Below, one piece after another: positions 11,655 to 44,287 of a DNA stretch of 64,000 nucleotides. How positions within the stretch are numbered: the first letter of the stretch is position 1; each line of letters begins with the position of its first letter. The translations under genes were made by a program, and so were the position numbers. Location of the stretch: the NCBI GenBank assembly GCA_048538215.1, contig JBLYPV010000001.1, forward strand, positions 11,495 through 75,494, written 5' to 3'. The stretch comes from Patescibacteria group bacterium. GTDB lineage: Bacteria > Patescibacteriota > Minisyncoccia > Phycocordibacterales > GCA-2747955. The notes beneath the pieces were generated by a model. It made no database searches and was not told the DNA's origin. It was given only the letters and a program-made list of their open reading frames with translations.

Positions 11655-13211
11655 TTAGGCTCTCTTTTTAACATTTTTATGTTGTTGTTTTGCTAGATGA
11701 GATCGGATCTTACGCCGTGCCTCGGTACTTTTGGTAAATTCTAGCCATTTTGCTGAAGGAGAAGCGTGTGGTTTGGTAATTATTTCTACAATATCACCAT
11801 TACGAAGTGGTGTATCAAGGGAGACAAGCTTTCCTCCTATCTTTGCCCCAGCGGTATGGTGGCCAATCTCACTATGTACGAGATAGGCGAAGTCAATAGG
11901 GGTAGACCCTTGAGGTAAATCAATGACAGCCCCTACGGGGGTAAAGACAAAAATACGATGAGAGAAAAAATCTTCTTTCAATTTTTGTTCAAATTGCTCT
12001 GAATCGAGGGCCTCATCACTATTGGCAGCTAAGCTTGATAGCCAATCTGGAATAGTGGCATCATCATTTGCATCTCGTGCTTGACGATTGGAGATAAATC
12101 GATGCAATAGTTTGGCGACCCAGGATTGATCTTTAGAATCAATATTTGCTGGTAGGGATCCAGTAGCACTTTTATATCCCAAGTGTGAAGCTGCACCATA
12201 TTCTGCTCGATTATGCATTTCTTCAGTACGAATCTGAATTTCCACCAAGCCTCCATCGCCAGTAAAGATGGTGGTGTGAATTGATTGGTAGCCATTTGGC
12301 TTTTCGAAGGCGATGTAATCCTTGATCCGCCCAGGCATCGGTCGATAGTTTTGATGGATAATTCCCAGCACCTGGTAGCAGGCAGGCTTATCAGGTACGA
12401 TAATACGCAATGCAGCTATATCATATATTTTTTCGGTATCCCATTTTTTGCGTTCGAGTTTTTTGTAAAGAGAATACATACCTTTTACTCTTCGGCTTGT
12501 ATGAAAATCACGAATATGATTTTCTGCTAATTTACGCTTAATTGAACGATCAATTTTTTCGAGCTTTGCGAGCGTCTGCTTACTCCGCTCTTTCATTATT
12601 GCCCGTGTTTTCTTGTATGCCTCAGGATATACATAAGGGAATGCCAAATCTTCAAGTTGTCGAGAGAGAGTAGAGATACCTAATCGATAAGCTAGGGGAG
12701 CATAAATTTCAAGAGTCTCAATGGCAATACGCTCTCGCTTGTCTTCTCGTACTGAGTCAAGCGTTTGCATATTGTGCAGTCGGTCTGCTAGCTTGATGAT
12801 AATGACACGGATATCTTTTGCGCTCGCAATAAAGAATTTTCTCAATGATTCATTATGGCGACGCATACCTTGGTAACGTACTTTACCAAGCTTGGTCACT
12901 CCATCTACTAACTCAGCGATCTCTTTGCCAAATGTTTTTTCTACTGATTCCTCGCTTGCCATTCCATCTTCTACTGCATCATGCAAAAGTCCAGCGGCGA
13001 TTACCCGCTTACGCATTCCTAGGCTTGAGAGATTTTTGGCGGTCTCTACCAGGTGATAGAAGTATGGCTCTCCCGATTTTCTTTTTTGTCCCTCATGGGC
13101 AATTTCGGCAAATTCAAAAGCTCGCCTAATTAAAGCTTTTGCATCTTTATCAAAGGGCACGGGTGCCACATTGTAGATTTCTTCTAGTTTGGATTCCAAT
13201 TCTGGGGTCAT
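11655..13211 (-). CDS. rel: Short bifunctional (p)ppGpp synthetase/hydrolase Rel (HD + synthetase + TGS domains, no ACT domain)
   Basis: The HD motif (LLHDAVEDG), the synthetase region (YQSIHTTI…, RIKDYIAF) and a C-terminal TGS-like region (…PQGSTPIDFAYLVHSEIGHH…) are all present. The protein is only 518 aa. Confidence 0.85.
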   Translation of the reverse strand: MTPELESKLEEIYNVAPVPFDKDAKALIRRAFEFAEIAHEGQKRKSGEPYFYHLVETAKNLSSLGMRKRVIAAGLLHDAVEDGMASEESVEKTFGKEIAELVDGVTKLGKVRYQGMRRHNESLRKFFIASAKDIRVIIIKLADRLHNMQTLDSVREDKRERIAIETLEIYAPLAYRLGISTLSRQLEDLAFPYVYPEAYKKTRAIMKERSKQTLAKLEKIDRSIKRKLAENHIRDFHTSRRVKGMYSLYKKLERKKWDTEKIYDIAALRIIVPDKPACYQVLGIIHQNYRPMPGRIKDYIAFEKPNGYQSIHTTIFTGDGGLVEIQIRTEEMHNRAEYGAASHLGYKSATGSLPANIDSKDQSWVAKLLHRFISNRQARDANDDATIPDWLSSLAANSDEALDSEQFEQKLKEDFFSHRIFVFTPVGAVIDLPQGSTPIDFAYLVHSEIGHHTAGAKIGGKLVSLDTPLRNGDIVEIITKPHASPSAKWLEFTKSTEARRKIRSHLAKQQHKNVKKRA

Positions 13212-32295: not shown

Positions 32296-33608
32296 ATACA
32301 AACAAACGATTTTCTATCTTCCAAATAGCTATGATAGCCATCTTTGGCTTACTTGCTCTTGCGGGAGTGGTAGCATTTGCCACCTATCGAGCTCCCGAGC
32401 CGGCTTCGATGATAGGTAAGGTGGATATTTGGGGCACCTATGATGCAGATATGTTTAATCGCTACTTACGAGAGCTCAAAGAGCAAGATGAATCGCTCAA
32501 GAAAGTATCCTATCGTGAGCTTGATCCCTCAGATTTTAGACAAGATGTATTAGAGGCAATGGCGAGTGGAAATTCTCCTGATTTACTTTTTATCCCTGAG
32601 TACGTCCTGTATCCATATCTCGACAAGATAGTGACCATCCCCTCAAGTTCGTATTCTCGTAGTGATTTTATTAATAATTTTGTAGATGCAAGTGAGATTT
32701 ATTTTCAAAATGATGGAATCGTGGGACTGCCATTAGCAGTGGATCCCTTGGTGGTCTATTGGAATAGAGATATCTTTGCTTCAGCTGGGGTGCCACGCCC
32801 GCCATCAAGCTGGACAGAATATTTTTCTCTCGCTCAAAAGCTTTCTCAGGTAGATGAGAGCTTGAGTATCAAGCAGTCGGCTATTGCTCTGGGAGAAAGT
32901 GATAATATCAATTATTTTCGTGAAATTATGGCTACTTTGATTCTTCAAATTGGTAACCCAATTATTAGCCGAGACGAAGATGGTAGATTGCGAGCACAGC
33001 TTGAGGGAGATCGTGATACAGAGTCGGCTCAAGCGGCTGTTCGATTCTTTACTGAGTTTTCAAATGCATCCAAGGCAGCCTACTCTTGGAATCGCTCTAT
33101 GCCTACAAGTAGAGATGCTTTTTTGGCAGGTGATTTGGCAATCTATCTAGCTCCTATCTCGGATATATTTTCTATACGTGTTGCTAATCCTAATCTTAAT
33201 TTTGCTATTGCTGAGATCCCATCAGTGGATACCACCATTTCTCGTCGCAAGGCAGTGTACGCTACTTTGTATGGATTTGTCATTCCGAAAGTATCAGACA
33301 ATAGAGGCGGGGCTTATCAAGCAGCTATAGCACTAACAAGTGATCAAGGAGTGCGTACATTTACCGGAATCACTGGTCTAGGCCCTGCTCGACGAGATCA
33401 AACAGCTGAAAGCTCGGAGGAGGCTTATCGTGATATTGTGAAGAGAGAAGCGCTCTATGCTCAGACCTTTCTCGATCCTCAGTATCAAAGTACCCAGCAA
33501 GTATTAGCCGATATGGTGGAGTATGTGACGAGTGGACAGCGATCAATCAGCAATGCCTTATATGTGTCCAACGCAGCCTTACGGACGGTAATTAATAATG
33601 CAAAGTAA
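32292..33608 (+). CDS. Membrane-anchored extracellular solute-binding protein (ABC-type, family 1)
   Basis: N-terminal TM anchor, then an SBP_bac_1-like core (…DLLFIPEYVLYPYLDKIV…AVDPLVVYWNRDIF…). No permease or ATPase gene is adjacent. Confidence 0.55.
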   Translation: MNTNKRFSIFQIAMIAIFGLLALAGVVAFATYRAPEPASMIGKVDIWGTYDADMFNRYLRELKEQDESLKKVSYRELDPSDFRQDVLEAMASGNSPDLLFIPEYVLYPYLDKIVTIPSSSYSRSDFINNFVDASEIYFQNDGIVGLPLAVDPLVVYWNRDIFASAGVPRPPSSWTEYFSLAQKLSQVDESLSIKQSAIALGESDNINYFREIMATLILQIGNPIISRDEDGRLRAQLEGDRDTESAQAAVRFFTEFSNASKAAYSWNRSMPTSRDAFLAGDLAIYLAPISDIFSIRVANPNLNFAIAEIPSVDTTISRRKAVYATLYGFVIPKVSDNRGGAYQAAIALTSDQGVRTFTGITGLGPARRDQTAESSEEAYRDIVKREALYAQTFLDPQYQSTQQVLADMVEYVTSGQRSISNALYVSNAALRTVINNAK

Positions 33609-35157
33609 TATGAAAATTATGAATAATCAAAAAATAGCAATTTTACACCATAATAAGTATTTATTTTTGATTAATAATTACTTATTATTATCTATAGCGC
33701 TTATGGTAATGGTATCTATCGTTGCGTTACCAAAAAGTTTATACGCAGATGTCTCTTCAGAAAATACTACGAATCAGGAGGTTGATTATCATGAGGTGGT
33801 TCCCGCATTAGATGATTACTTTTGGTCTTGGGATATTTTACCGAGTGAGGTTGATAAAGATGACCTGGATACATTTCTAGAAAATGGGATCTCTGGAGAT
33901 CAAATCGGAGTTGTCAAGAAACAATTATTGCCTATTAAGCCAGCTTCATATACGGGTACTCTAACGTCATATATGATGAGTCAGTGTTTATTAGAAAAGT
34001 CTCAATATCCCTCTGCTGGAAATTGTTATATAGCTTGCACAAGAACAGCAACTGATAGTGATTGGGTGTCTGGATCACAGTGCGAAGGGAAGTCTCCGAA
34101 AGGGTATTATTTTTTTTATGTTGAATCATTAGGATCAAGAGTCGTAGTAGAAGATACATTAATTGGACAGGCGGGAGCGAATCTTGCATCTTATATTATA
34201 GATAATGAAGTTGAGGCAAAATGTTTTAAAGACGATTTAAGTACTGGTAAAACTGCTCGTGAGCAATGCGAAGAAGCTATGGCTCCTTATAAAGACTGGA
34301 TTCCAGAAACTACAAATTCAATGAGTGATAATTTCGCTGGCACTGGTTGGGATTGGTTTGATAATCTCACTACAATTGTAAGACCATTTTCAAGCTCAGT
34401 TTCTTTTCGGTGTACTGAATTGGGCGAAGATAATTTTTTTAATAATTACGATGTTGGAGATTATTGCTTTAATTATGCAGCTAGAAATTCTGATGCACGT
34501 ATTGATATTAATGTGGGCACAGGAGATACCTGCTTTTATAGCGAAGATAGATGTATTCTTACAGTGGCGACTGCATATGCAGGACTAGTTATTGTAAATG
34601 AAGACGGAGAGGAAATCCCAGTTAACCGTACAATTAGAAATTCAGATTATTGTCGAGCAGATAAAGACGATGCAGGCAGGGAGGTATATTGTATGAATGA
34701 CAGGGGTATTCCTATCCAGAATGCAAATCCGATCAATGAAGCATTATACCAAGACCAGTATGAACAGTGGCAAGCTCAAGTGCAAGCACATACTGCTGCT
34801 GTGGACGCCTATGAGGCTGCTGGTACTCAAGCCTTAAAGGAAGCGGGAGCATTAGTGCCGTGTATGGGGACCGATTGTGGGTGGAAGGAGCTCATTGATT
34901 TAATTAATCGAATTATTCGCTTTATGATCACTATCGCAGCTGTATTGCTAGTGCTTATGATTATCTATGCAGGATTCCAGCTCGTAAGTGCTCGAGGAAA
35001 TGCAGCGGCTCTCACAAAAGCTAAAAGTGCTCTCTGGAAGGCGATTGCAGGCTTTGTTTTAGTGCTCACCGCCTGGCTGATTGTGAATGCGGTAGTGAGC
35101 TTGATTCTCAAAGATGAATTTAAAGATGATCCGAATGTGAATATCTTGAAGAATTAG
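33598..35157 (+). CDS. Large secreted Cys-rich protein (≥24 Cys) with a C-terminal two-helix TrbC/VirB2-like pilin module
   Basis: An N-terminal signal/TM is followed by a ~380-aa Cys-rich ectodomain. The last ~80 aa (IIRFMITIAAVLLVLMIIYAGFQLVSARGNAAALTKAKSALWKAIAGFVLVLTAWLIVNAVVSLIL) have the same helix-loop-helix layout as the six downstream small proteins. Confidence 0.6.
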   Translation: MQSNMKIMNNQKIAILHHNKYLFLINNYLLLSIALMVMVSIVALPKSLYADVSSENTTNQEVDYHEVVPALDDYFWSWDILPSEVDKDDLDTFLENGISGDQIGVVKKQLLPIKPASYTGTLTSYMMSQCLLEKSQYPSAGNCYIACTRTATDSDWVSGSQCEGKSPKGYYFFYVESLGSRVVVEDTLIGQAGANLASYIIDNEVEAKCFKDDLSTGKTAREQCEEAMAPYKDWIPETTNSMSDNFAGTGWDWFDNLTTIVRPFSSSVSFRCTELGEDNFFNNYDVGDYCFNYAARNSDARIDINVGTGDTCFYSEDRCILTVATAYAGLVIVNEDGEEIPVNRTIRNSDYCRADKDDAGREVYCMNDRGIPIQNANPINEALYQDQYEQWQAQVQAHTAAVDAYEAAGTQALKEAGALVPCMGTDCGWKELIDLINRIIRFMITIAAVLLVLMIIYAGFQLVSARGNAAALTKAKSALWKAIAGFVLVLTAWLIVNAVVSLILKDEFKDDPNVNILKN

Positions 35158-35211
35158 AGCTTTGTTGAAATCTCTATGACAGCTTTATAAAAGAGTGATA
35201 CACTACTAATT

Positions 35212-35583
35212 ATGAAATACTTATCCTTGCTCGTTAGTCGATCAAAATATACCGCCCTACTATTTTTCTTGTCTGTTGCTTTAGTGCATGCAGAAGGAGG
35301 AGACGGTACACTCATCAATCCTTTGGCTGGTGATATGACACTGATGCAATTTGTCACCTTTTTGGTGCGTGATGTTTTGGTAGGGATAATTGCTCCTATT
35401 GTACTCACCCTTGCGCTTCTTTATACTGGCTTTATGTTTATCTCCGCTCAAGGAAATCCTAGCAAACTCCAAGATGCTCAGCGTAATTTTGTTTATGTCA
35501 TCGTGGGAGGAATTTTACTTCTCGGAGCATATGTGATTCTTGCGGTGATTACCAATACGGTCGATCAGCTCACGGTAAATTAA
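35212..35583 (+). CDS. TrbC/VirB2-like pilin candidate 1 (Sec signal peptide + two hydrophobic helices)
   Basis: Signal peptide …ALVHA|EGG. The mature ~95 aa has two TM helices split by a short polar loop (YTGFMFISAQGNPSK) and a WG/GxxxG-rich helix 2. This is the VirB2/TrbC architecture. Confidence 0.55.
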   Translation: MKYLSLLVSRSKYTALLFFLSVALVHAEGGDGTLINPLAGDMTLMQFVTFLVRDVLVGIIAPIVLTLALLYTGFMFISAQGNPSKLQDAQRNFVYVIVGGILLLGAYVILAVITNTVDQLTVN

Positions 35584-35593
35584 TGATTATTGT

Positions 35594-35890
35594 ATGCGTA
35601 CATTATATTACTTCATACTTCTAACACTTCCTACTCTAGCTTTTGCTCAAACTTTCAAGAGCTTGGTAGATGATCTTGTTTTTATCATCAATGCCTCCAT
35701 CGGAATAATAGTGGCTTTGTCTGTAGCAGTATTTTTTTACGGGATGGCAATGTATGTGTTTCGTATGGGATCAGGATCTACTGAGGGTCATACAGGTGGC
35801 TATAATTTGATGATGTGGGGGATTTTGATTTTTTTCGTGATGGCCTCAGTGTGGGGGATTGTCAATTTGGTAGCTGGAAGCTTTTTCTAA
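35594..35890 (+). CDS. TrbC/VirB2-like pilin candidate 2
   Basis: Signal peptide …LAFA|QT. FFYGMAMYVFRMGSGS loop; LMMWG…SVWGIVNL in helix 2. Confidence 0.55.
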   Translation: MRTLYYFILLTLPTLAFAQTFKSLVDDLVFIINASIGIIVALSVAVFFYGMAMYVFRMGSGSTEGHTGGYNLMMWGILIFFVMASVWGIVNLVAGSFF

Positions 35891-35909
35891 AGAAATAGAT
35901 AATACTAGT

Positions 35910-36281
35910 ATGAAATATGCACCTAAAATTACTATCTATTCGATGCTCGTCCTCGGAGGCACTATACCTCACCTAGCCTATGGGTATAGAATAGACAATG
36001 TATATTCTTTGTTTATTCTTCTTGATTATCTGATAGTACTGGCAGTGCAAATTGCTTTTGCGCTGGCGGTGGTGGCTTTTTTCTATGGATTGGCTCTCTA
36101 TATTTTTAAGTCAGGCAATCATAGTGCTAATGCGCAGGGGATTCGACTTATGCTCTGGGGGGTCGTGGCACTTTTTGTGATGGTTTCAATTTGGGGGATA
36201 GTGATAATCCTACAAGATTCTTTTGGAGTGGATAATAGAGATACACCACGCTACCCCCAGCTACACATCAGGGGGCGCTAA
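35910..36281 (+). CDS. TrbC/VirB2-like pilin candidate 3
   Basis: Same architecture. FFYGLALYIFKSGNHS loop; LMLWGVVALFVMVSIWGIV. Confidence 0.55.
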   Translation: MKYAPKITIYSMLVLGGTIPHLAYGYRIDNVYSLFILLDYLIVLAVQIAFALAVVAFFYGLALYIFKSGNHSANAQGIRLMLWGVVALFVMVSIWGIVIILQDSFGVDNRDTPRYPQLHIRGR

Positions 36282-36415
36282 CTTTATCTAAAGGGACAAG
36301 ACGATGTGCATTTGTCCCAATGATACTTGTGGATAGCGCACTTCCACTTCAAGGAGAGCTTGGTATGATACAAATATACTTATAAATATAGTAGATAACA
36401 ATAAATGATAACAAT

Positions 36416-36772
36416 ATGAAACAAATAGTAATTTCAGGCCTTGCCTTAGCTCTACCTTTTCTTGCTTTAGCACAAAATGCTGAAGGGAAAGGCCTTGGTG
36501 GAGTACTTGATAGCATTGGAAAATTGCTCGATCTCGCCATCGGCCTCCTCTTTGCTCTCGCCGTCCTCGCCTTTTTCTACGGCTTGGCAATCTACATATT
36601 CAAATCAGGAAAAGAGAAGCAGGAAGGAATCAATATTATGGTAATGGGCACCATTGCACTTTTTGTAATGGCTTCTATTTACGGTATTATTGGATTGCTA
36701 CAGAATAGCTTTGAGGTGACAGGGAGTGAAGAAATAGGTCTCCCTGATCCTACTCTAGGAATAGGAAATTAA
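36416..36772 (+). CDS. TrbC/VirB2-like pilin candidate 4
   Basis: Signal peptide …LALA|QNA. Its core is identical at the DNA level over ~161 bp to candidate 5. Confidence 0.6.
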   Translation: MKQIVISGLALALPFLALAQNAEGKGLGGVLDSIGKLLDLAIGLLFALAVLAFFYGLAIYIFKSGKEKQEGINIMVMGTIALFVMASIYGIIGLLQNSFEVTGSEEIGLPDPTLGIGN

Positions 36773-36816
36773 TTACTTCTTTTAATTTTTAATAAAATAC
36801 GATAATATTCACATAT

Positions 36817-37164
36817 ATGAAATATACAACACTCGGAATTATAAGTTTGGTCGTTCCTTTTTTGGCTTTTGCTCAAGCTAACGGAAGTAGTAATCTTGAA
36901 GGGCTTCTCAAGAGTATAGGAGGATTACTTGATACTGCCATCGGCCTCCTCTTTGCTCTCGCCGTCCTCGCCTTTTTCTACGGCTTGGCAATCTACATAT
37001 TCAAATCAGGAAAAGACAAGCAGGAGGGAATCAATATTATGGTAATGGGCACCATTGCACTTTTTGTAATGGCTTCTATTTACGGTATTATTGGATTATT
37101 GCAAGATAGTTTTAATGTCAAAAAAGATGGTAGCGAAATTACGCTACCTAAAGCACCTAAGTAA
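36817..37164 (+). CDS. TrbC/VirB2-like pilin candidate 5
   Basis: Signal peptide …LAFA|QA. The core 36937-37097 is identical to 36536-36696 apart from one E/D change. Confidence 0.6.
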   Translation: MKYTTLGIISLVVPFLAFAQANGSSNLEGLLKSIGGLLDTAIGLLFALAVLAFFYGLAIYIFKSGKDKQEGINIMVMGTIALFVMASIYGIIGLLQDSFNVKKDGSEITLPKAPK

Positions 37165-37270
37165 ATAGTTAGAAAATCTTATTAGGGTATCATTATAGAT
37201 AAGATTTTATTTTATAAATTAAAATAAAGGATGTTCTTATGTGCCATTGAGATATCAGCAAATCATTTTT

Positions 37271-37615
37271 ATGAAATACCACACAGCATTTCTATTTTTC
37301 TTACCCGCGGTAGTTTTTGCTGATGCCATCACTATTGATCAAGGCGTGATTCAATTAATTAATAATTTTATAAACGCCATCATCAATCCAATGATTGTCT
37401 TATTGATAGCGGCGGCGCTCTTGCTATTTTTATGGGGGCTATTACGACTCATGATAGATCTATCAAATGGAGGAAAGGGAGAGGAGGGGAAGCGGCATAT
37501 GCTATGGGGGCTTGTGGGCTTGATTGTTATGATTAGTGTTTGGGGGATTATTAATCTCATCGCCAATTCAATCGGAGCAGAAGTATCACAAATAGACGCT
37601 TCTGATAATTTTTAG
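37271..37615 (+). CDS. TrbC/VirB2-like pilin candidate 6 (start probably at MKYHTAFL; the ORF track starts at 37241)
   Basis: Signal peptide …VVFA|DA. Two helices with a charged loop (SNGGKGEEGKRH); MLWGLVGLIVMISVWGIINL. Confidence 0.5.
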   Translation: MKYHTAFLFFLPAVVFADAITIDQGVIQLINNFINAIINPMIVLLIAAALLLFLWGLLRLMIDLSNGGKGEEGKRHMLWGLVGLIVMISVWGIINLIANSIGAEVSQIDASDNF

Positions 37616-39439: not shown

Positions 39440-41164
39440 ATGTCACTTGTTTCATACTTAGTACAAGAAAGAATAATAGATGAAATGGATGCTACGCGTA
39501 TCGAAGAAGATGCACAAACAAAAGGTAGCTCTATTGATGAGGCGGTAATTGATGCTGGGGTAGATCCAGATGTGCTTTTTACTGCTAAACAAAAATTTTT
39601 TTCTGACTACGAAGTACGTTATCAGGAGAGTAAGGATATGGTGCCACCAGAAGTGCTTGAATATGTGCCAGAAAATTCTGCTCGGCTCTATGGCTTTGTG
39701 CCTCTAGCAATACGCGATGGAGATATACTCGAAGTAGGTATTCTTGACCCAGATAATCTATCTGCCAAATCTGCTCTCGAATTTATCGCCGGGGCGGAAG
39801 GGATTTCTTATGAACTATATCTTATCTCTTATGATTATTATAGTTTTATTATTGAAAATTATTCAGGGCTTAAAGGTGAGGTACAAGAAGCACTGGGGGC
39901 ACTTGAAGCAGAACAGCAATCATATGCAGCTAAGGTTTCAAAAAGAAAAAATTACCAAGATATTGACGAAACAGAGCGAATTACTGAAGATGCTCCTATT
40001 ACCAAGATAGTATCTAATATTCTCAAGCATGCCGCTGAGACTCGTACCTCTGATGTACACATTGAGCCACTTAGTGGACAAACAGATGTTCGCTATCGTA
40101 TAGATGGCTTACTCCAAAAGGATCTCACTCTCCCTAAAAGTATTCATGAAGCTGTCATAGCTCGCATTAAAATACTTTCAAAGATTAAATTAGATGAGAA
40201 GCGTATTCCGCAAGATGGTCGTTTTTCAGCTAAATTACTAGGGCGAAAAATTGATTTTCGTGTTTCTACTTTTCCTACGTATTATGGAGAGAAATGTGTG
40301 ATGCGTTTGTTGGAATCAGATCGAGGGACACTTAATATTCATGAGCTGGGGCTCGTGGGTGAAAATGCAGAAAAAATGAAGCGAATCATTACAAAGCCCT
40401 ATGGAATTATTCTTGTTTGTGGCCCCACTGGATCGGGTAAAACTACTTCTCTATATTCATTCCTTGATGAGCTTGATAAGCAAACAGTAAATGTAGTGTC
40501 ACTCGAAAATCCAATTGAAATGAATATTGAGGGTGTATCACAATCACAAGTGCGTCCTGATATCGGCTATACTTTTGCCAATGGTTTGCGATCGGTCTTG
40601 CGTCAAGACCCCGACATTATTATGGTCGGTGAAATTCGTGATACCGAGACAGCTCAATTGGCTATCCAAGCAGCGCTTACTGGGCATCTTGTTTTTTCTA
40701 CCATTCACACCAACACAGCATCCGATGTAGTGCAACGATTAGTTGATATGGGGGTAGAGCAGTATTTGATAGGACCAACTATCGTAGCAGCAATTGGGCA
40801 ACGATTGGTGCGTACCATTGCCCCCAACTCAGGCAAAGAAGTACCAATGAGCCCAGCGGTACGAGAGATGATTCGGCATCAAATTTCTGATTTACCAAAA
40901 GAGGTACAAGCACAATTTACCTCTCAAGATACAATGTATGAGGCTGTGCCAAGCGATGCCTATCCCACAGGAGAGAGTGGACGAATTGGCGTATTTGAAA
41001 TTCTCGAAATGAATCCAGAGCTCGAACGCTTGGTGCTCAAAGATCCAAGTAGTCGGGCTATATATGATGAAGCTCGCAAGCACGGCTTCATCACTTTTAA
41101 AGAAGACGCTATTCTCAAGGCCTTGGAGGGTAGGATTACTTTTGAACAAGTAATGAAACTATAA
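39440..41164 (+). CDS. pilB: Type IV pilus/T2SS assembly ATPase (PilB/GspE family) with an N-terminal GspE_N domain
   Basis: Walker A (VCGPTGSGKTTS), Asp box, His box, Walker B (DIIMVGEIRD), and the N-terminal T2SSE_N-like domain. Confidence 0.85.
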   Translation: MSLVSYLVQERIIDEMDATRIEEDAQTKGSSIDEAVIDAGVDPDVLFTAKQKFFSDYEVRYQESKDMVPPEVLEYVPENSARLYGFVPLAIRDGDILEVGILDPDNLSAKSALEFIAGAEGISYELYLISYDYYSFIIENYSGLKGEVQEALGALEAEQQSYAAKVSKRKNYQDIDETERITEDAPITKIVSNILKHAAETRTSDVHIEPLSGQTDVRYRIDGLLQKDLTLPKSIHEAVIARIKILSKIKLDEKRIPQDGRFSAKLLGRKIDFRVSTFPTYYGEKCVMRLLESDRGTLNIHELGLVGENAEKMKRIITKPYGIILVCGPTGSGKTTSLYSFLDELDKQTVNVVSLENPIEMNIEGVSQSQVRPDIGYTFANGLRSVLRQDPDIIMVGEIRDTETAQLAIQAALTGHLVFSTIHTNTASDVVQRLVDMGVEQYLIGPTIVAAIGQRLVRTIAPNSGKEVPMSPAVREMIRHQISDLPKEVQAQFTSQDTMYEAVPSDAYPTGESGRIGVFEILEMNPELERLVLKDPSSRAIYDEARKHGFITFKEDAILKALEGRITFEQVMKL

Positions 41165-41330
41165 AATCTAGGCATCCTGTCTAATTTTCGATTACGTACA
41201 AATTTACCACTAAGAAGTATACTAGAGTATTAGTTTGCGAGCTACCACCTCACTAGTCACTAGTTTTACCAGCTCGTCTGTCCCCAATATTTTTCTTTAT
41301 TAATTATCACTTCTCTATTACAATACAATT

Positions 41331-42389
41331 ATGGACATGAAAGAAGAGTTGAAAAAATTAATTCAAATTGTCGTCTCAGAAGAGGCATCAGATCTTCATC
41401 TTTCGGAAGGGCGCTATCCTACTATTCGAGTATCTGGAGCGCTCATACCGATTACTAAAAGCCGAGAATTATCTGAAGAAGATTTATCTATACTTTTGAA
41501 TTTAATACTCACCCCTGATCAGCGCGAACGATTTATTGCTAATAAAGAGATGGATTTTGCTTTTGAAGCGGGGGGAGTACGCTTTCGTGGCAATGCTTAC
41601 TATCAACAAGGAGATGTCTCTATCGCCTTACGACAAATTAATAATAAAGTAAGCTCTCTTGAAGAGCTTGGATTGCCTAGCATACTCGAAACATTTGCAA
41701 AAAAAGAACAAGGATTTTTCTTAGTGGTAGGGCCTACTGGGCATGGCAAATCTACTACGCTCGCTACTTTAATTGATATTATCAATCAGAGTCGTACAGA
41801 ACACATCGTGACAATTGAAGACCCAGTTGAATTTTTGTTTGAACAAAAGCAGTCTATTATAGATCAACGAGAAGTAGGATTTGATACAAGGAATTTTTCA
41901 GCAGCACTCAGAAGTGCATTCCGACAAGATATTGATGTTTTGATGATAGGAGAGATGCGTGGCCCAGAGACAATGGAGACGGCCATTACCGCTGCTGAGA
42001 CGGGGCACTTAGTATTCTCCACTCTCCATACTAATACCGCTTCACAGACAATCGATCGTATTATCGATACCTTTAGCGGGGATAAGCAAAAACAAATCCG
42101 TACTCAGCTCTCGAGCTCGCTTATGGGAATTTTTTCTCAACGACTCATTCCTTCGGTATCAGGAGGGCGGGTACCTGCCTACGAGCTTTTGATCAATACT
42201 CCTGCTGTTTCCAATTTGATTCGAGAAGGAAGAATTCATGAGATTGATTCTTTTATTGAGACATCTTCACAACACGGTATGATTTCTCTCAATCGGTCGC
42301 TTGCTACCCTTGTGCGTGAGGGGGAGATTTCAGTAGAAGATGCATATCGTTATTCTCCTCAGAGTAAGAATCTAGATCGCTTGCTCTAA
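41331..42389 (+). CDS. pilT: Twitching-motility/retraction ATPase (PilT family)
   Basis: 352 aa. Walker A (VVGPTGHGKSTT), DVLMIGEMRG, GHLVFSTLHTNTA. Confidence 0.8.
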   Translation: MDMKEELKKLIQIVVSEEASDLHLSEGRYPTIRVSGALIPITKSRELSEEDLSILLNLILTPDQRERFIANKEMDFAFEAGGVRFRGNAYYQQGDVSIALRQINNKVSSLEELGLPSILETFAKKEQGFFLVVGPTGHGKSTTLATLIDIINQSRTEHIVTIEDPVEFLFEQKQSIIDQREVGFDTRNFSAALRSAFRQDIDVLMIGEMRGPETMETAITAAETGHLVFSTLHTNTASQTIDRIIDTFSGDKQKQIRTQLSSSLMGIFSQRLIPSVSGGRVPAYELLINTPAVSNLIREGRIHEIDSFIETSSQHGMISLNRSLATLVREGEISVEDAYRYSPQSKNLDRLL

Positions 42390-42401
42390 ATACATATATC
42401 T

Positions 42402-43238
42402 ATGCTTATTACCAAACAAGACGGTAGCCAAGAGGAGTTTGATCCTCATAAGCTTGATGAATCACTCTTGCGTGCGGGCACAAGCAAGGAAGCTCGAGAA
42501 GAGATTATTGAGCGTATCACAGATGAGATTGAAGAGGGTATGAGCACCACGGTCATTTATCGGAAGGCGTATAAATTACTTGAAAAATATGAAAAACGGC
42601 CAGAGGTAACCTTTCGTTATTCTTTGCGTCGAGCAATTGCTGATTTTGGCCCCTCAGGTTTTCCTTTTGAAAAATTTATAGGCGAAGTATACCGCCTTGA
42701 GGGTTATCAAGTAGAGGTAGGAAAAAAAATTAAGGGCAGATGTGCTACTCACGAGCTAGATATTGTGGGGCACAAAGAAGGTGAGATTTTTACCGCTGAG
42801 CTCAAATTTCATAATAAGCAATCAATCCGTACCGATCTGCAGACCACACTCTATATGCGAGCTCGTTTCGATGACCTTATCGCTATAAATTACTATAAAG
42901 ACACAACTCCACGCTTGGCTATTATTACCAATACTAAATTTACCTCAAGTGCTATTAATTATGGTGAATGTATGGGTATTGAGCTTATTGGGTGGAATTT
43001 TCCTCGCAGAGAGGGGAATCTACATGATGTAATTATGAAAAGTGGTATTCATCCACTAACTTGCTTATCATCACTTAGCAAAAGCCAAAAAAGATATTTC
43101 CTTGAAAAAGGATTAGTGCTTTGCCGTGAATTAGTAGAGAATGACATGCAAGCTCTTCGTGAGGCACGGGGGATTGTGCCGGAATCAAAATTGGGAAAAA
43201 TACGAGAAGAAATAGAGCTTATTCAACAGGCAGTATAG
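42402..43238 (+). CDS. ATP-cone domain fused to a restriction-endonuclease-like (Mrr_cat/PD-(D/E)xK) domain
   Basis: N-terminal ITKQDGSQEEFDPHKLDESLLRAG…EEIIERITDEIE matches the ATP-cone (NrdR/RNR N-terminal) pattern. The central FEKFIGEVYRLEGYQVEV…HELDIVGHKEGEIFTAELKF resembles the Mrr-type endonuclease core. Confidence 0.5.
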   Translation: MLITKQDGSQEEFDPHKLDESLLRAGTSKEAREEIIERITDEIEEGMSTTVIYRKAYKLLEKYEKRPEVTFRYSLRRAIADFGPSGFPFEKFIGEVYRLEGYQVEVGKKIKGRCATHELDIVGHKEGEIFTAELKFHNKQSIRTDLQTTLYMRARFDDLIAINYYKDTTPRLAIITNTKFTSSAINYGECMGIELIGWNFPRREGNLHDVIMKSGIHPLTCLSSLSKSQKRYFLEKGLVLCRELVENDMQALREARGIVPESKLGKIREEIELIQQAV

Positions 43239-43320
43239 TATTGACATATTTGCTATCCTTTACATAGTATAGTATATTGCTTGTTAATAGTGGTTTGAGT
43301 CATCACGAAGGGATGAAGGA

Positions 43321-43662
43321 ATGAACATTTTCTTTGTAACAGTAGGGCTTGTGGGCTATCTTACAATTGGCTTTTTCGTCGCCGGGGCTGTCACAGTCCA
43401 AAACAGGGCCTACAATCATAAAGATCGGCCCAAACAGAGCCCAGTCTGGGTGTACCTCGTGTACACATTGATCGTGGCTCTTTGGGTTCTGCGGGTATTT
43501 GCATGGCCCGTGGTCGCCCTGGTCGTTCCATGGTACATGATGAAAAATGCCTGGAACCACCCAGTTTGGTGCTTGAAAGGGTGCCCCTTTCACAAGACCT
43601 TCTTGTCGAATATGATGACAAGAAGGGTGGAGGGCAGAAGCCCTCATGAGCAGAGGTGCTAA
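43321..43662 (+). CDS. Small membrane protein (113 aa, 3-4 TM, Trp/Pro-rich)
   Basis: Hydrophobic ORF followed by a terminator at 43679-43706. Confidence 0.4.
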   Translation: MNIFFVTVGLVGYLTIGFFVAGAVTVQNRAYNHKDRPKQSPVWVYLVYTLIVALWVLRVFAWPVVALVVPWYMMKNAWNHPVWCLKGCPFHKTFLSNMMTRRVEGRSPHEQRC

Positions 43663-43678
43663 GCTATGCATTAGAAAG

Positions 43679-43706
43679 GAGGCGACCCGCACGGGTCGCC
43701 TTTTTC
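43679..43706 (+). terminator. Rho-independent terminator aggcgacccg cac gggtcgcct + T5
   Basis: Seen directly. It is followed by an extended -10 (TGcTACAAT, ~43721-43729) about 9 nt before the frr ATG. Confidence 0.6.
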
Positions 43707-43738
43707 TCTTGTCTTTTCTTTATGCTACAATACTTTTT

Positions 43739-44287
43739 ATGAACGCACAGCAGACATTTAAGGACAAGCTCGACGCAGTAGCTCTTTGGCTTCAAAAAGA
43801 GTATCAAACAATTCGTACCGGCCAAGCAAGCCCTGCTATTTTAGATGGCATTACGGTAGAGGCTTATGGGGTGAAAACACCACTTGCACAAATAGCGGCT
43901 GTTTCTATAGAGGGGACACAATCATTATTAGTGAGTCCTTATGATAAGAATCAAATTAAGCAATTAGAGAAAGCTTTCTATGAGGCCGACCTCGGTCTTT
44001 CTATTGTATCGGGTGAAGCGGGGGTGCGGGTGATTTTTCCTAATCTCACTGCGGAACGACGAGTGATGCTTATTAAGCTTGCTCGTGAAAAGCTTGAGAA
44101 AGCACGAGTATCTGTCCGTCAAGAGCGTGACAGCTATTGGAGCGATATTCAATCTCAGCACAAAGAGGGAGAGATTTCTGAGGATGAAAAGTTTAGCAAA
44201 AAGGAAGAAATGGAGGAGCTTGTAAAGGGGAGTAATGATAGGCTTGATCAATTATTTAAAAATAAAGAGTCTGAAATAAAAGGCTAG
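43739..44287 (+). CDS. frr: Ribosome recycling factor
   Basis: MNAQQTFKDKLDAV…LQKEYQTIRTGQASPAILDGITVEAYG matches RRF. The ORF-track start at 43646 is replaced by the Met at 43739, placed by RRF alignment. An extended -10 (TGcTACAAT) ~9 nt upstream means the transcript is leaderless or nearly so. Confidence 0.8.
   Translation: MNAQQTFKDKLDAVALWLQKEYQTIRTGQASPAILDGITVEAYGVKTPLAQIAAVSIEGTQSLLVSPYDKNQIKQLEKAFYEADLGLSIVSGEAGVRVIFPNLTAERRVMLIKLAREKLEKARVSVRQERDSYWSDIQSQHKEGEISEDEKFSKKEEMEELVKGSNDRLDQLFKNKESEIKG

Follow-up and report, generated by a model that had tools for sequence, protein, structure and literature searches.

Within a 64,000-nt stretch of the genome of a Patescibacteria group bacterium (contig JBLYPV010000001.1; hereafter the window), the open reading frame (ORF) at 42402..43238 (+) encodes a 278-residue protein in which an ATP-cone, a PD-(D/E)xK nuclease core and a C-terminal helical domain are fused. 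This protein belongs to the AF1548 family, and we propose that it is an ATP/dATP-gated nuclease that feeds nucleic-acid turnover and nucleotide salvage, and that it is not an accessory of the type IV pilus (T4P)-like machinery encoded beside it. We put the probability of this reading at about one half. The architecture is fixed across Archaea, Patescibacteria and other bacteria, with the catalytic and nucleotide-binding signatures intact. The ORF begins with ATG, at the coordinates given by an earlier interpretation made from the letters alone (the sequence-only reading), and its product is identical to NCBI MFW0870889.1, named 'ATP cone domain-containing protein'.

The first 80 residues form an ATP-cone. 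Pfam PF03477 scores above its cutoff on residues 1–48 (27.9 versus 25.8 bits, E = 3.5e-6), and homologs cover profile positions 1–81. An AlphaFold model of the window protein, built on 48 homologs (predicted local distance difference test (pLDDT) score 91.7, predicted template-modelling score 0.84), has a β-hairpin and four helices in this region, and Foldseek places model residues 1–81 on the ATP-cone of Escherichia coli NrdR with a root-mean-square deviation of 1.8 Å over 81 residues. Further fold matches are to NrdD, NrdA, human RRM1 and the NrdB cone. In a 48-sequence family alignment, K5, G8 and K17 are invariant and E11, F13, G46, T49 and I52 are conserved at ≥90%; G26 and Y73 are also conserved. 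The cone signature (VxKxDG..E.F...K; G..T..I; residues K5, G8, E11, F13, K17 and T49) is kept in archaeal members, and we take its residues to correspond to K9, E15 and K21 of NrdA. The sequence-only reading had called the domain NrdR-type. Pfam, fold and signature all bear out the cone itself, but not the subtype, as NrdR cones and those of ribonucleotide reductases (RNRs) are both only weakly similar by sequence (E 0.02–0.2) and cannot be told apart here. Because the protein starts with the cone, it is predicted to be cytoplasmic.

We also considered whether the protein is an NrdR-like repressor and rejected this. Its catalytic residues do not vary across the family alignment, no Zn-ribbon precedes the cone, and nrd genes are unlinked, none having been noted near any Patescibacteria, archaeal or plasmid locus examined. 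The NrdR model TIGR00244 yields 14.9 bits, far below its cutoff of 124.65.

The sequence-only reading had named domain searches as a check on its Mrr-like PD-(D/E)xK core. Pfam confirms the cone, and matches to solved structures confirm the core, whose fold and conserved residues are those of a predicted nuclease and not of a non-catalytic DNA-binding domain. The window protein falls below the threshold of Pfam Mrr_cat (PF04471; 15.4 bits, cutoff 21), and four of five homologs scanned lie above it (26–39 bits), with P0050 at 20.7. PDB entry 1Y88 (Archaeoglobus fulgidus AF1548) is matched with E = 1.1e-23 by the single sequence and 2.5e-45 by the family profile, and residues ~85–278 of the model superpose on 1Y88 in Foldseek (E = 1.3e-11). 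The other PD-(D/E)xK proteins matched by fold are NucS/EndoMS, the nuclease domains of Can2, Card1 and Cdn1, McrC and XisH. The modelled α-β-β-β core consists of a helix (88–99) followed by strands 103–111, 116–125 and 128–135. Across the 48 sequences E90, D120, E133 and K135 are invariant, and archaeal members carry the same residues; this agrees with an in-silico nuclease survey in which catalytic D/E/K residues were predicted for AF1548 (PMC1821046). Also invariant are H117, E118, H137 and the segment TNTKF (176–180) within the core, and G83, P84, G86, F89 and E90 across the linker motif, the latter kept in archaea. To judge from this conservation, the catalytic core is intact, and it is predicted to be Mg2+-dependent.

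A third domain, overlooked in the sequence-only reading, spans residues ~203–278 and corresponds to AF1548-like_C (PF22357). Pfam finds this domain in homologs, with no match at E ≤ 1 in the window sequence itself, and the C-terminal profile matches 1Y88 residues 129–197 (E = 9e-18). P218, T220, L222 and E270 are invariant. Modelled alone (pLDDT 87.5), the domain resembles the N-terminal domain of RAD51/RadA, the thumbs of Y-family polymerases and BAF, although these matches are weak and none is individually significant. One homolog, P0167, carries Pfam HHH_5 in addition to the ATP-cone and Mrr_cat. From the models, the domain is probably a tandem helix-hairpin-helix, (HhH)2-like, fold that binds nucleic acid. 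Separately, the family alignment shows three nearly invariant cysteines (C114, C190 and C241), which, with the invariant H117 and H137, lie outside the canonical catalytic set and might form a metal site.

The fusion had been described as uncommon. This is not so: a word-indexed search returned 1,309 matching proteins at 90% clustering, and an exhaustive hidden Markov model (HMM) search of 1.84 billion representative proteins returned 1,825, 1,176 and 616 clusters at 50% identity for E ≤ 1e-3, 1e-10 and 1e-30, respectively. Almost all of the best 150 HMM matches are 264–335 residues long (one has 403), and nearly all are full-length. At least 598 species-representative genomes encode the fusion; the motif (L/F)GPSGFPFE was the scan pattern both for this survey and for the metagenome survey below. 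Members occur in Patescibacteria, Archaea, Bacteroidota and Chlamydiota, and full-length homologs reside on plasmids of Pontibacter (Bacteroidota) and Criblamydia (Chlamydiota). A query with the AF1548 sequence showed the combination of ATP-cone, Mrr_cat and AF1548_C to be standard in Archaeoglobus, Ferroglobus, Geoglobus, Hadesarchaea, Bathyarchaeia, Altiarchaeota and Methanomassiliicoccales. No homologs were found in a phage collection or among PHROG families. The window gene is thus an ordinary member of a large, catalogued family, with a Pfam architecture, NCBI names and one truncated PDB entry. The earlier statement that the fusion is functionally uncharacterised holds up: the literature searched contains no description of the function of an ATP-cone/nuclease fusion and no biochemical study of the family, only the structural-genomics entry 1Y88 and the prediction in PMC1821046.

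That one structure is incomplete. Both the 1Y88 chain (199 residues) and the AF_1548 gene model (174–187 residues) are without a cone, whereas near-identical 265-residue Archaeoglobus proteins have one. The short AF_1548 is likely to reflect a mis-called start or a strain-specific truncation, and the missing cone in 1Y88 probably traces to the original gene model being too short. For structural biologists the practical point is that the sole solved structure of the family lacks its regulatory domain.

Genomic context outside the candidate phyla radiation (CPR) provides independent support for a link to salvage. The Pontibacter and Criblamydia plasmids, which are unrelated, carry the same block of four genes: the nuclease gene comes first, followed by genes for a metallo-β-lactamase (MBL)-fold hydrolase, a 'thymidine phosphorylase family protein' and a ribose-phosphate pyrophosphokinase. 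On the Criblamydia plasmid, genes for phosphoketolase, glycogen phosphorylase and acetate kinase border the block. The MBL-fold partner is a β-CASP/RMMBL ribonuclease closest to Thermus thermophilus TTHA0252 (E = 3e-79), the phosphorylase is closest to the AMP phosphorylase of Thermococcus kodakarensis (4GA5, E = 1e-104), and the kinase to archaeal phosphoribosyl pyrophosphate (PRPP) synthase. A metagenome scan led by the two plasmid-encoded proteins returned 80 further non-CPR loci. Among those with a downstream gene, 44 of 72 have a β-CASP gene as the first or second gene downstream in the same orientation, and tblastn places it there in 35 of 57 loci with at least 1.5 kb downstream; AMP phosphorylase and PRPP synthase genes then follow in about 14 loci. 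Redundancy does not account for this linkage, because the β-CASP-linked loci come from 17 clusters at 70% identity and range over 29–48% GC. At an Altiarchaeota locus, a tRNase Z-like (not β-CASP) MBL-fold hydrolase and AMP phosphorylase are encoded directly upstream of the nuclease gene, and in a Bacteroidota metagenome-assembled genome the phosphorylase gene lies 8 kb downstream of it. We found no description of the nuclease/β-CASP/AMP phosphorylase operon in the literature searched. For CPR bacteria, a nucleoside pathway that uses AMP phosphorylase has been documented (PMC5113843).

The surroundings of the non-CPR operons look like a stress or fermentation island. Tandem universal stress protein (Usp) genes, HSP20, MgtC with DUF4010, and an AAA_28/dNK-like kinase were confirmed with Pfam; phosphofructokinase, 2-hydroxyacid dehydrogenase and P-type ATPase genes were judged by eye.

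The sequence-only reading had instead tied the nuclease to the pilus and had named conserved synteny with pilus genes as a check. To run it, we took 80 Patescibacteria species-representative loci (39–50% identity, with flanks of at most 10 kb on either side) and used every window protein as a query. With the window's PilT and PilB in tblastn (E ≤ 1e-5 and 1e-8), no match lay within 10 kb of the nuclease gene at any of these 80 loci or of the 80 non-CPR metagenome loci (0/80 and 0/80), the queries being PilT and PilB and not ComEC. Three archaeal loci show no pilus genes either, and have three different contexts: CorA, an amino-acid permease–Usp fusion, and AMP phosphorylase. Family-wide linkage to pilT or pilB is thereby ruled out, and the synteny argument for the pilus does not survive at family level. 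The order pilO-x-pilB-pilT-nuclease gene-frr-(rseP)-infA is found in the seven closer relatives sampled (49–78% identity), although L083 and L088 have one or two unrelated genes separating pilT from the nuclease gene, and at several of these loci a small gene lies between the nuclease gene and frr. Neighbor-joining groups the pilT-linked sequences into one nested clade that contains no unlinked locus, and the sister lineage has the order gatC-nuclease gene-HSP20-alaS-frr, without pilT. A single rearrangement specific to this lineage put the nuclease gene next to pilT and was passed on along with the adjacency to frr, which is just as tight; that tight linkage on the other side makes the pilT adjacency look like inherited gene order.

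What the Patescibacteria members have in common is a chromosomal-core position upstream of infA-rpsM-rpoA. The genes infA-rpsM-rpsK-rpsD-rpoA-rplQ lie 4–10 kb downstream on the same strand at 34 of the 80 loci, and in the window genome, too, the nuclease gene sits in the chromosomal core upstream of frr-infA-rpsM-rpoA. Clustering of neighbors gives the order leuS, a sigma-70-r4/HARE-HTH protein, a membrane protein, mnmA, mnmA, the nuclease gene, (an unknown), MgtC, a Cas4-like PDDEXK_1 nuclease, an MGMT-type DNA-binding protein, uracil-DNA glycosylase (UDG) or HD_3, alaS, two unknowns and infA. Near the nuclease gene, the Cas4-like nuclease was counted at 39 of 77 loci, UDG at 25, the MGMT-type protein at 17 and a YfbR-like HD_3 5'-deoxynucleotidase at 10. 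Mg2+-related membrane proteins also recur beside the nuclease gene: MgtC is encoded at 26 of the 77 Patescibacteria loci, as well as with DUF4010 in the non-CPR operons, and at the Ferroglobus locus CorA overlaps the start of the nuclease gene. A link to Mg2+/ATP homeostasis is possible.

We envisage that ATP and dATP compete for the cone and alter the oligomeric state of the protein or access to its active site, by analogy with RNRs and NrdR. Cleavage of nucleic acid would thereby be coupled to the adenylate/deoxyadenylate pool. The nuclease would act as the entry step of intracellular nucleic-acid turnover, yielding (deoxy)nucleoside monophosphates for salvage or catabolism, and in relatives these products would pass to the β-CASP exonuclease, AMP phosphorylase and PRPP synthase, or to the YfbR-like 5'-deoxynucleotidase. 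In every cone studied, the ATP/dATP ratio switches the attached module via oligomerization (PMC4390871). The window protein has the cone fold and the K-x-D-G...E-x-F...K signature in common with NrdR and RNRs, and the same logic is expected of it; it differs in having neither the Zn-ribbon of NrdR nor the RNR barrel, in its nuclease output domain, and in its marginal sequence similarity.

Other known systems are alike in part. AF1548 has a homologous nuclease core and C-terminal domain with the same D/ExK residues (Foldseek TM-score 0.75, normalized to the target), and the near-identical full-length Archaeoglobus proteins have the same three-domain architecture as the window protein; AF1548 itself is only ~27% identical, comes from an archaeal host and was solved as a chain without the cone, and neither protein has an assigned function. 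The nearest proven working model is provided by Can2, Card1 and Cdn1 of type III CRISPR and cyclic-oligonucleotide-based anti-phage signaling (CBASS), which likewise place an N-terminal nucleotide sensor before a C-terminal PD-(D/E)xK nuclease and whose nuclease domains are among the best fold matches. However, they sense cyclic oligoadenylates through a CARF domain and their genes lie in defence loci, whereas the present family has an ATP-cone and a core or metabolic context without CRISPR or CBASS genes. Mrr type IV restriction enzymes have the Mrr_cat-type core in common with the family (above cutoff in homologs), but the ATP-cone takes the place of the Mrr_N winged helix, there is no defence island and the gene order is vertically conserved. 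As for the pathway of AMP phosphorylase, ribose-1,5-bisphosphate isomerase and form III RuBisCO, non-CPR relatives share an operon with an AMP phosphorylase homolog and PRPP synthase; that pathway is not known to include a nuclease, and its genes are not adjacent to the nuclease gene in the window or the sampled Patescibacteria loci.

Several points weigh against a salvage role. It is transferred across the family from the non-CPR operons, whose members form a sister group 34–39% identical to the window protein, and the β-CASP/AMP-phosphorylase operon is absent from the window and from the 80 Patescibacteria loci. The three archaeal contexts differ from one another. In the main Patescibacteria group, the Cas4-like, MGMT-type and UDG neighbors fit repair equally well, and the conserved gene order there may be vertical inheritance with no functional signal. 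Finally, binding of ATP/dATP, nuclease activity and the choice of DNA or RNA are all predictions, and the indications as to substrate diverge: the HhH-like domain and the fold favor DNA, and the RNA-type β-CASP partner and AMP phosphorylase favor RNA.

Among the alternatives the strongest, which we nonetheless regard as unlikely, is that the protein is an ATP-licensed, structure- or damage-specific endonuclease of DNA repair or recombination, working with the base-excision and end-processing genes found beside it. The PDDEXK_1, UDG and MGMT-type neighbors point this way, as do the fold similarity to NucS/EndoMS, the resemblance of the C-terminal domain to the RAD51/RadA N-terminal HhH module, and retention of the gene in reduced genomes. 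These neighbors are confined to one bacterial group, though, and could be inherited order; non-CPR relatives pair the nuclease gene with an RNase and nucleotide-catabolic enzymes, an ATP/dATP cone is without precedent in repair nucleases, and Geoglobus encodes a separate Hjc 2 kb away. The same Hjc bears on a reading as a Holliday-junction resolvase, which we considered too. The pilus model of the sequence-only reading, in which the nucleotide pool controls how the protein breaks down DNA brought in by T4P/ComEC, is in our judgment distinctly improbable. The gap of 12 nt to pilT with no intervening terminator, the pilB-pilT-nuclease order down to 49% identity, a cytoplasmic location that suits a nucleotide sensor, and an HhH-like domain suggestive of DNA binding speak for it, but the linkage is limited to one nested clade, is missing from the sister group, the 80 other Patescibacteria loci, the 80 non-CPR loci and the archaeal loci, is interrupted in L083 and L088, and is matched by that to frr, and the same fusion occurs in free-living archaea. 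Its premise, that nucleotides are acquired by T4P DNA uptake, is itself weakened: comEC is dispensable in the cultivated Saccharibacterium S. epibionticum, and the authors concluded that nucleotide acquisition does not require the com system (PMC10633639). What stands of the earlier proposal is its general idea, a nucleotide-sensing nuclease tied to salvage, which the non-CPR operon supports; coupling to pilus import does not.

Some PD-(D/E)xK effectors of the Can2/Card1 family cut RNA, and one could picture the protein degrading RNA, including ribosomes, during starvation or dormancy at low ATP, with the β-CASP 5'–3' RNase and AMP phosphorylase releasing ribose phosphates for energy. The partner β-CASP protein is of the RNA type and carries an RMMBL domain, the non-CPR operons sit amid tandem Usp, HSP20, phosphofructokinase, lactate-type dehydrogenase, phosphoketolase and acetate kinase genes, frr and translation genes flank the nuclease gene in the pilT-linked clade, and AMP phosphorylase works on ribonucleotides (PMC5113843). 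Even so, an HhH-like domain on a PD-(D/E)xK core is more typical of DNA enzymes and the stress-island context is seen only outside Patescibacteria, so that we give this account little credence. Least probable of all, in our estimate, is anti-phage defence, whether as an Mrr-like type IV restriction enzyme or as an abortive-infection nuclease triggered by a phage-induced change in dATP/ATP. The sequence-only reading had kept defence as its alternative, and the Mrr_cat-like core with its weak PADLOC match to the ZorD nuclease domain (E = 0.0036), the two plasmid-borne homologs, and a HicA toxin and transposase near the Ferroglobus locus could be read in its favor. PADLOC, however, gave no system match and nothing beyond that one domain, the phage and PHROG searches were empty, the protein lacks the N-terminal domain with which Mrr recognizes DNA, both plasmid copies belong to metabolic operons, and the core position and gene order in Patescibacteria are conserved, unlike those of sporadic defence islands.

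Features of the nuclease gene and its surroundings are collected in the following table.

Table 1. Coordinates of the nuclease gene, its parts and neighboring features in the window, and of the non-CPR loci.
Feature	Coordinates	Strand	Basis
Whole gene: ATP-cone, PD-(D/E)xK nuclease and AF1548-like C-terminal domain, 278 aa	42402..43238	+	ORF; Pfam, PDB and NCBI matches
ATP-cone domain, residues 1–80	42402..42641	+	PF03477 match, model secondary structure, NrdR superposition, conservation
Linker and first catalytic helix motif (L/F)GPSGFPFE, ending at predicted metal ligand E90	42642..42671	+	Conservation
PD-(D/E)xK core (Mrr_cat/AF1548-type), residues 86–200	42657..43001	+	Pfam, 1Y88 match, fold, conservation
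Predicted catalytic codons D120, E133 and K135	42759-42761; 42798-42800; 42804-42806	+	Conservation; AF1548 D/E/K prediction in PMC1821046
C-terminal helical domain AF1548-like_C, residues 203–278	43008..43235	+	PF22357 in homologs, 1Y88 profile match, domain model
pilT-like T2SSE ATPase, 352 aa (PilT size), context	41331..42389	+	Ends in TAA; 12 nt upstream of nuclease gene
Small conserved membrane-protein ORF, 113 aa, context	43321-43662	+	Two hydrophobic stretches; positional homolog
Strong terminator-like hairpin with T-run, 13-bp stem	43676-43705	+	Follows the 113-aa ORF
Plasmid and operon loci	L094 1972-6597; L095 7001-11608; L096-L175		Bacteroidota- and Chlamydiota-type contigs

The sequence-only reading had placed the gene 13 bp after pilT. 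The adjacency is real, but the intergenic gap is 12 bases (ATACATATATCT), and the figure of 13 came from stop-to-start arithmetic. No terminator was found between the two, and the nuclease gene is probably co-transcribed with pilT in the window organism, which tells little about nuclease function. The hairpin downstream of the 113-aa ORF is probably the 3' end of this transcription unit. A promoter scan was at chance level (13 sites versus 11.2 expected), so a promoter-like site at 42256-42283, within pilT, is no evidence for independent transcription, and an Rfam scan of 41100-43800 gave no match near any gathering score. The nuclease gene and frr are unusually far apart, and the 113-aa ORF occupies most of the space; in relative L083 a homolog with 44% identity lies at the corresponding position. 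This region also contains long opposite-strand ORFs, and its GC content reaches 0.50–0.55. The frr ORF as listed (43646-44287) is probably over-extended at its 5' end, because the RRF domain begins at residue 49, Met32 lies at 43739, the RRFs of relatives have 181 residues, and the terminator-like hairpin falls inside the extension.

Upstream of pilT, a 574-aa ATPase of the PilB type carries an MshEN domain; also encoded there are a PilO homolog and several PF18895 'T4SS_pilin' proteins. The latter form an array of six or seven tandem 'T4SS_pilin'/TrbC (VirB2)-like genes at 33598-37615, one encoding 519 residues, directly upstream of the PilO-, PilB- and PilT-type genes, and the array is also kept in relatives, including L084, L085 and L089. 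VirB2-like pilins beside T4P-type ATPases are an odd pairing, and we noted no canonical prepilin, PilC or PilD there. The window is housekeeping throughout (gyrA, pheST, ftsH, relA/spoT, lepA, mur ligases, prfB, ftsEX, pyrG). At its start (61-2990) are adjacent phosphoketolase and acetate kinase genes, the same pair that flanks the nuclease operon on the Criblamydia plasmid. A RelA/SpoT homolog (HD_4, RelA_SpoT and TGS) is encoded at 11655-13211 (-), and such homologs lie 2.5–4.2 kb downstream of the nuclease gene in L001, L019, L067 and L073, and 8.5 kb upstream in L013.

Patescibacteria lack de novo nucleotide synthesis, which raises the question of how they acquire nucleotides and ration them. 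To our knowledge, mechanistic studies of ATP-cones are limited to RNRs and NrdR. A cone-nuclease that is kept in hundreds of reduced genomes and is elsewhere linked to AMP phosphorylase is a testable candidate for regulated consumption of nucleic acid. More broadly, and only tentatively, since we hold it to be less probable than not, the AF1548 family might be an unrecognized class of ATP/dATP-gated nucleases that supplies the missing entry step of a pathway from nucleic acid to nucleotides or ribose phosphates in Archaea, Patescibacteria and Bacteroidota. This pathway would run from the nuclease to the β-CASP exonuclease, to AMP phosphorylase, and on to PRPP or a pentose-bisphosphate route. 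The window gene itself is unexceptional, and the family is a good experimental target. If the proposal is true, the enzyme would match the consumption of acquired nucleic acid, or of the cell's own, to the adenylate pool in nucleotide-auxotrophic Patescibacteria, and regulation by ATP-cones would reach from dNTP synthesis (RNR, NrdR) to nucleic-acid breakdown. A cone shown to gate a nuclease would broaden the ATP-cone regulatory principle.

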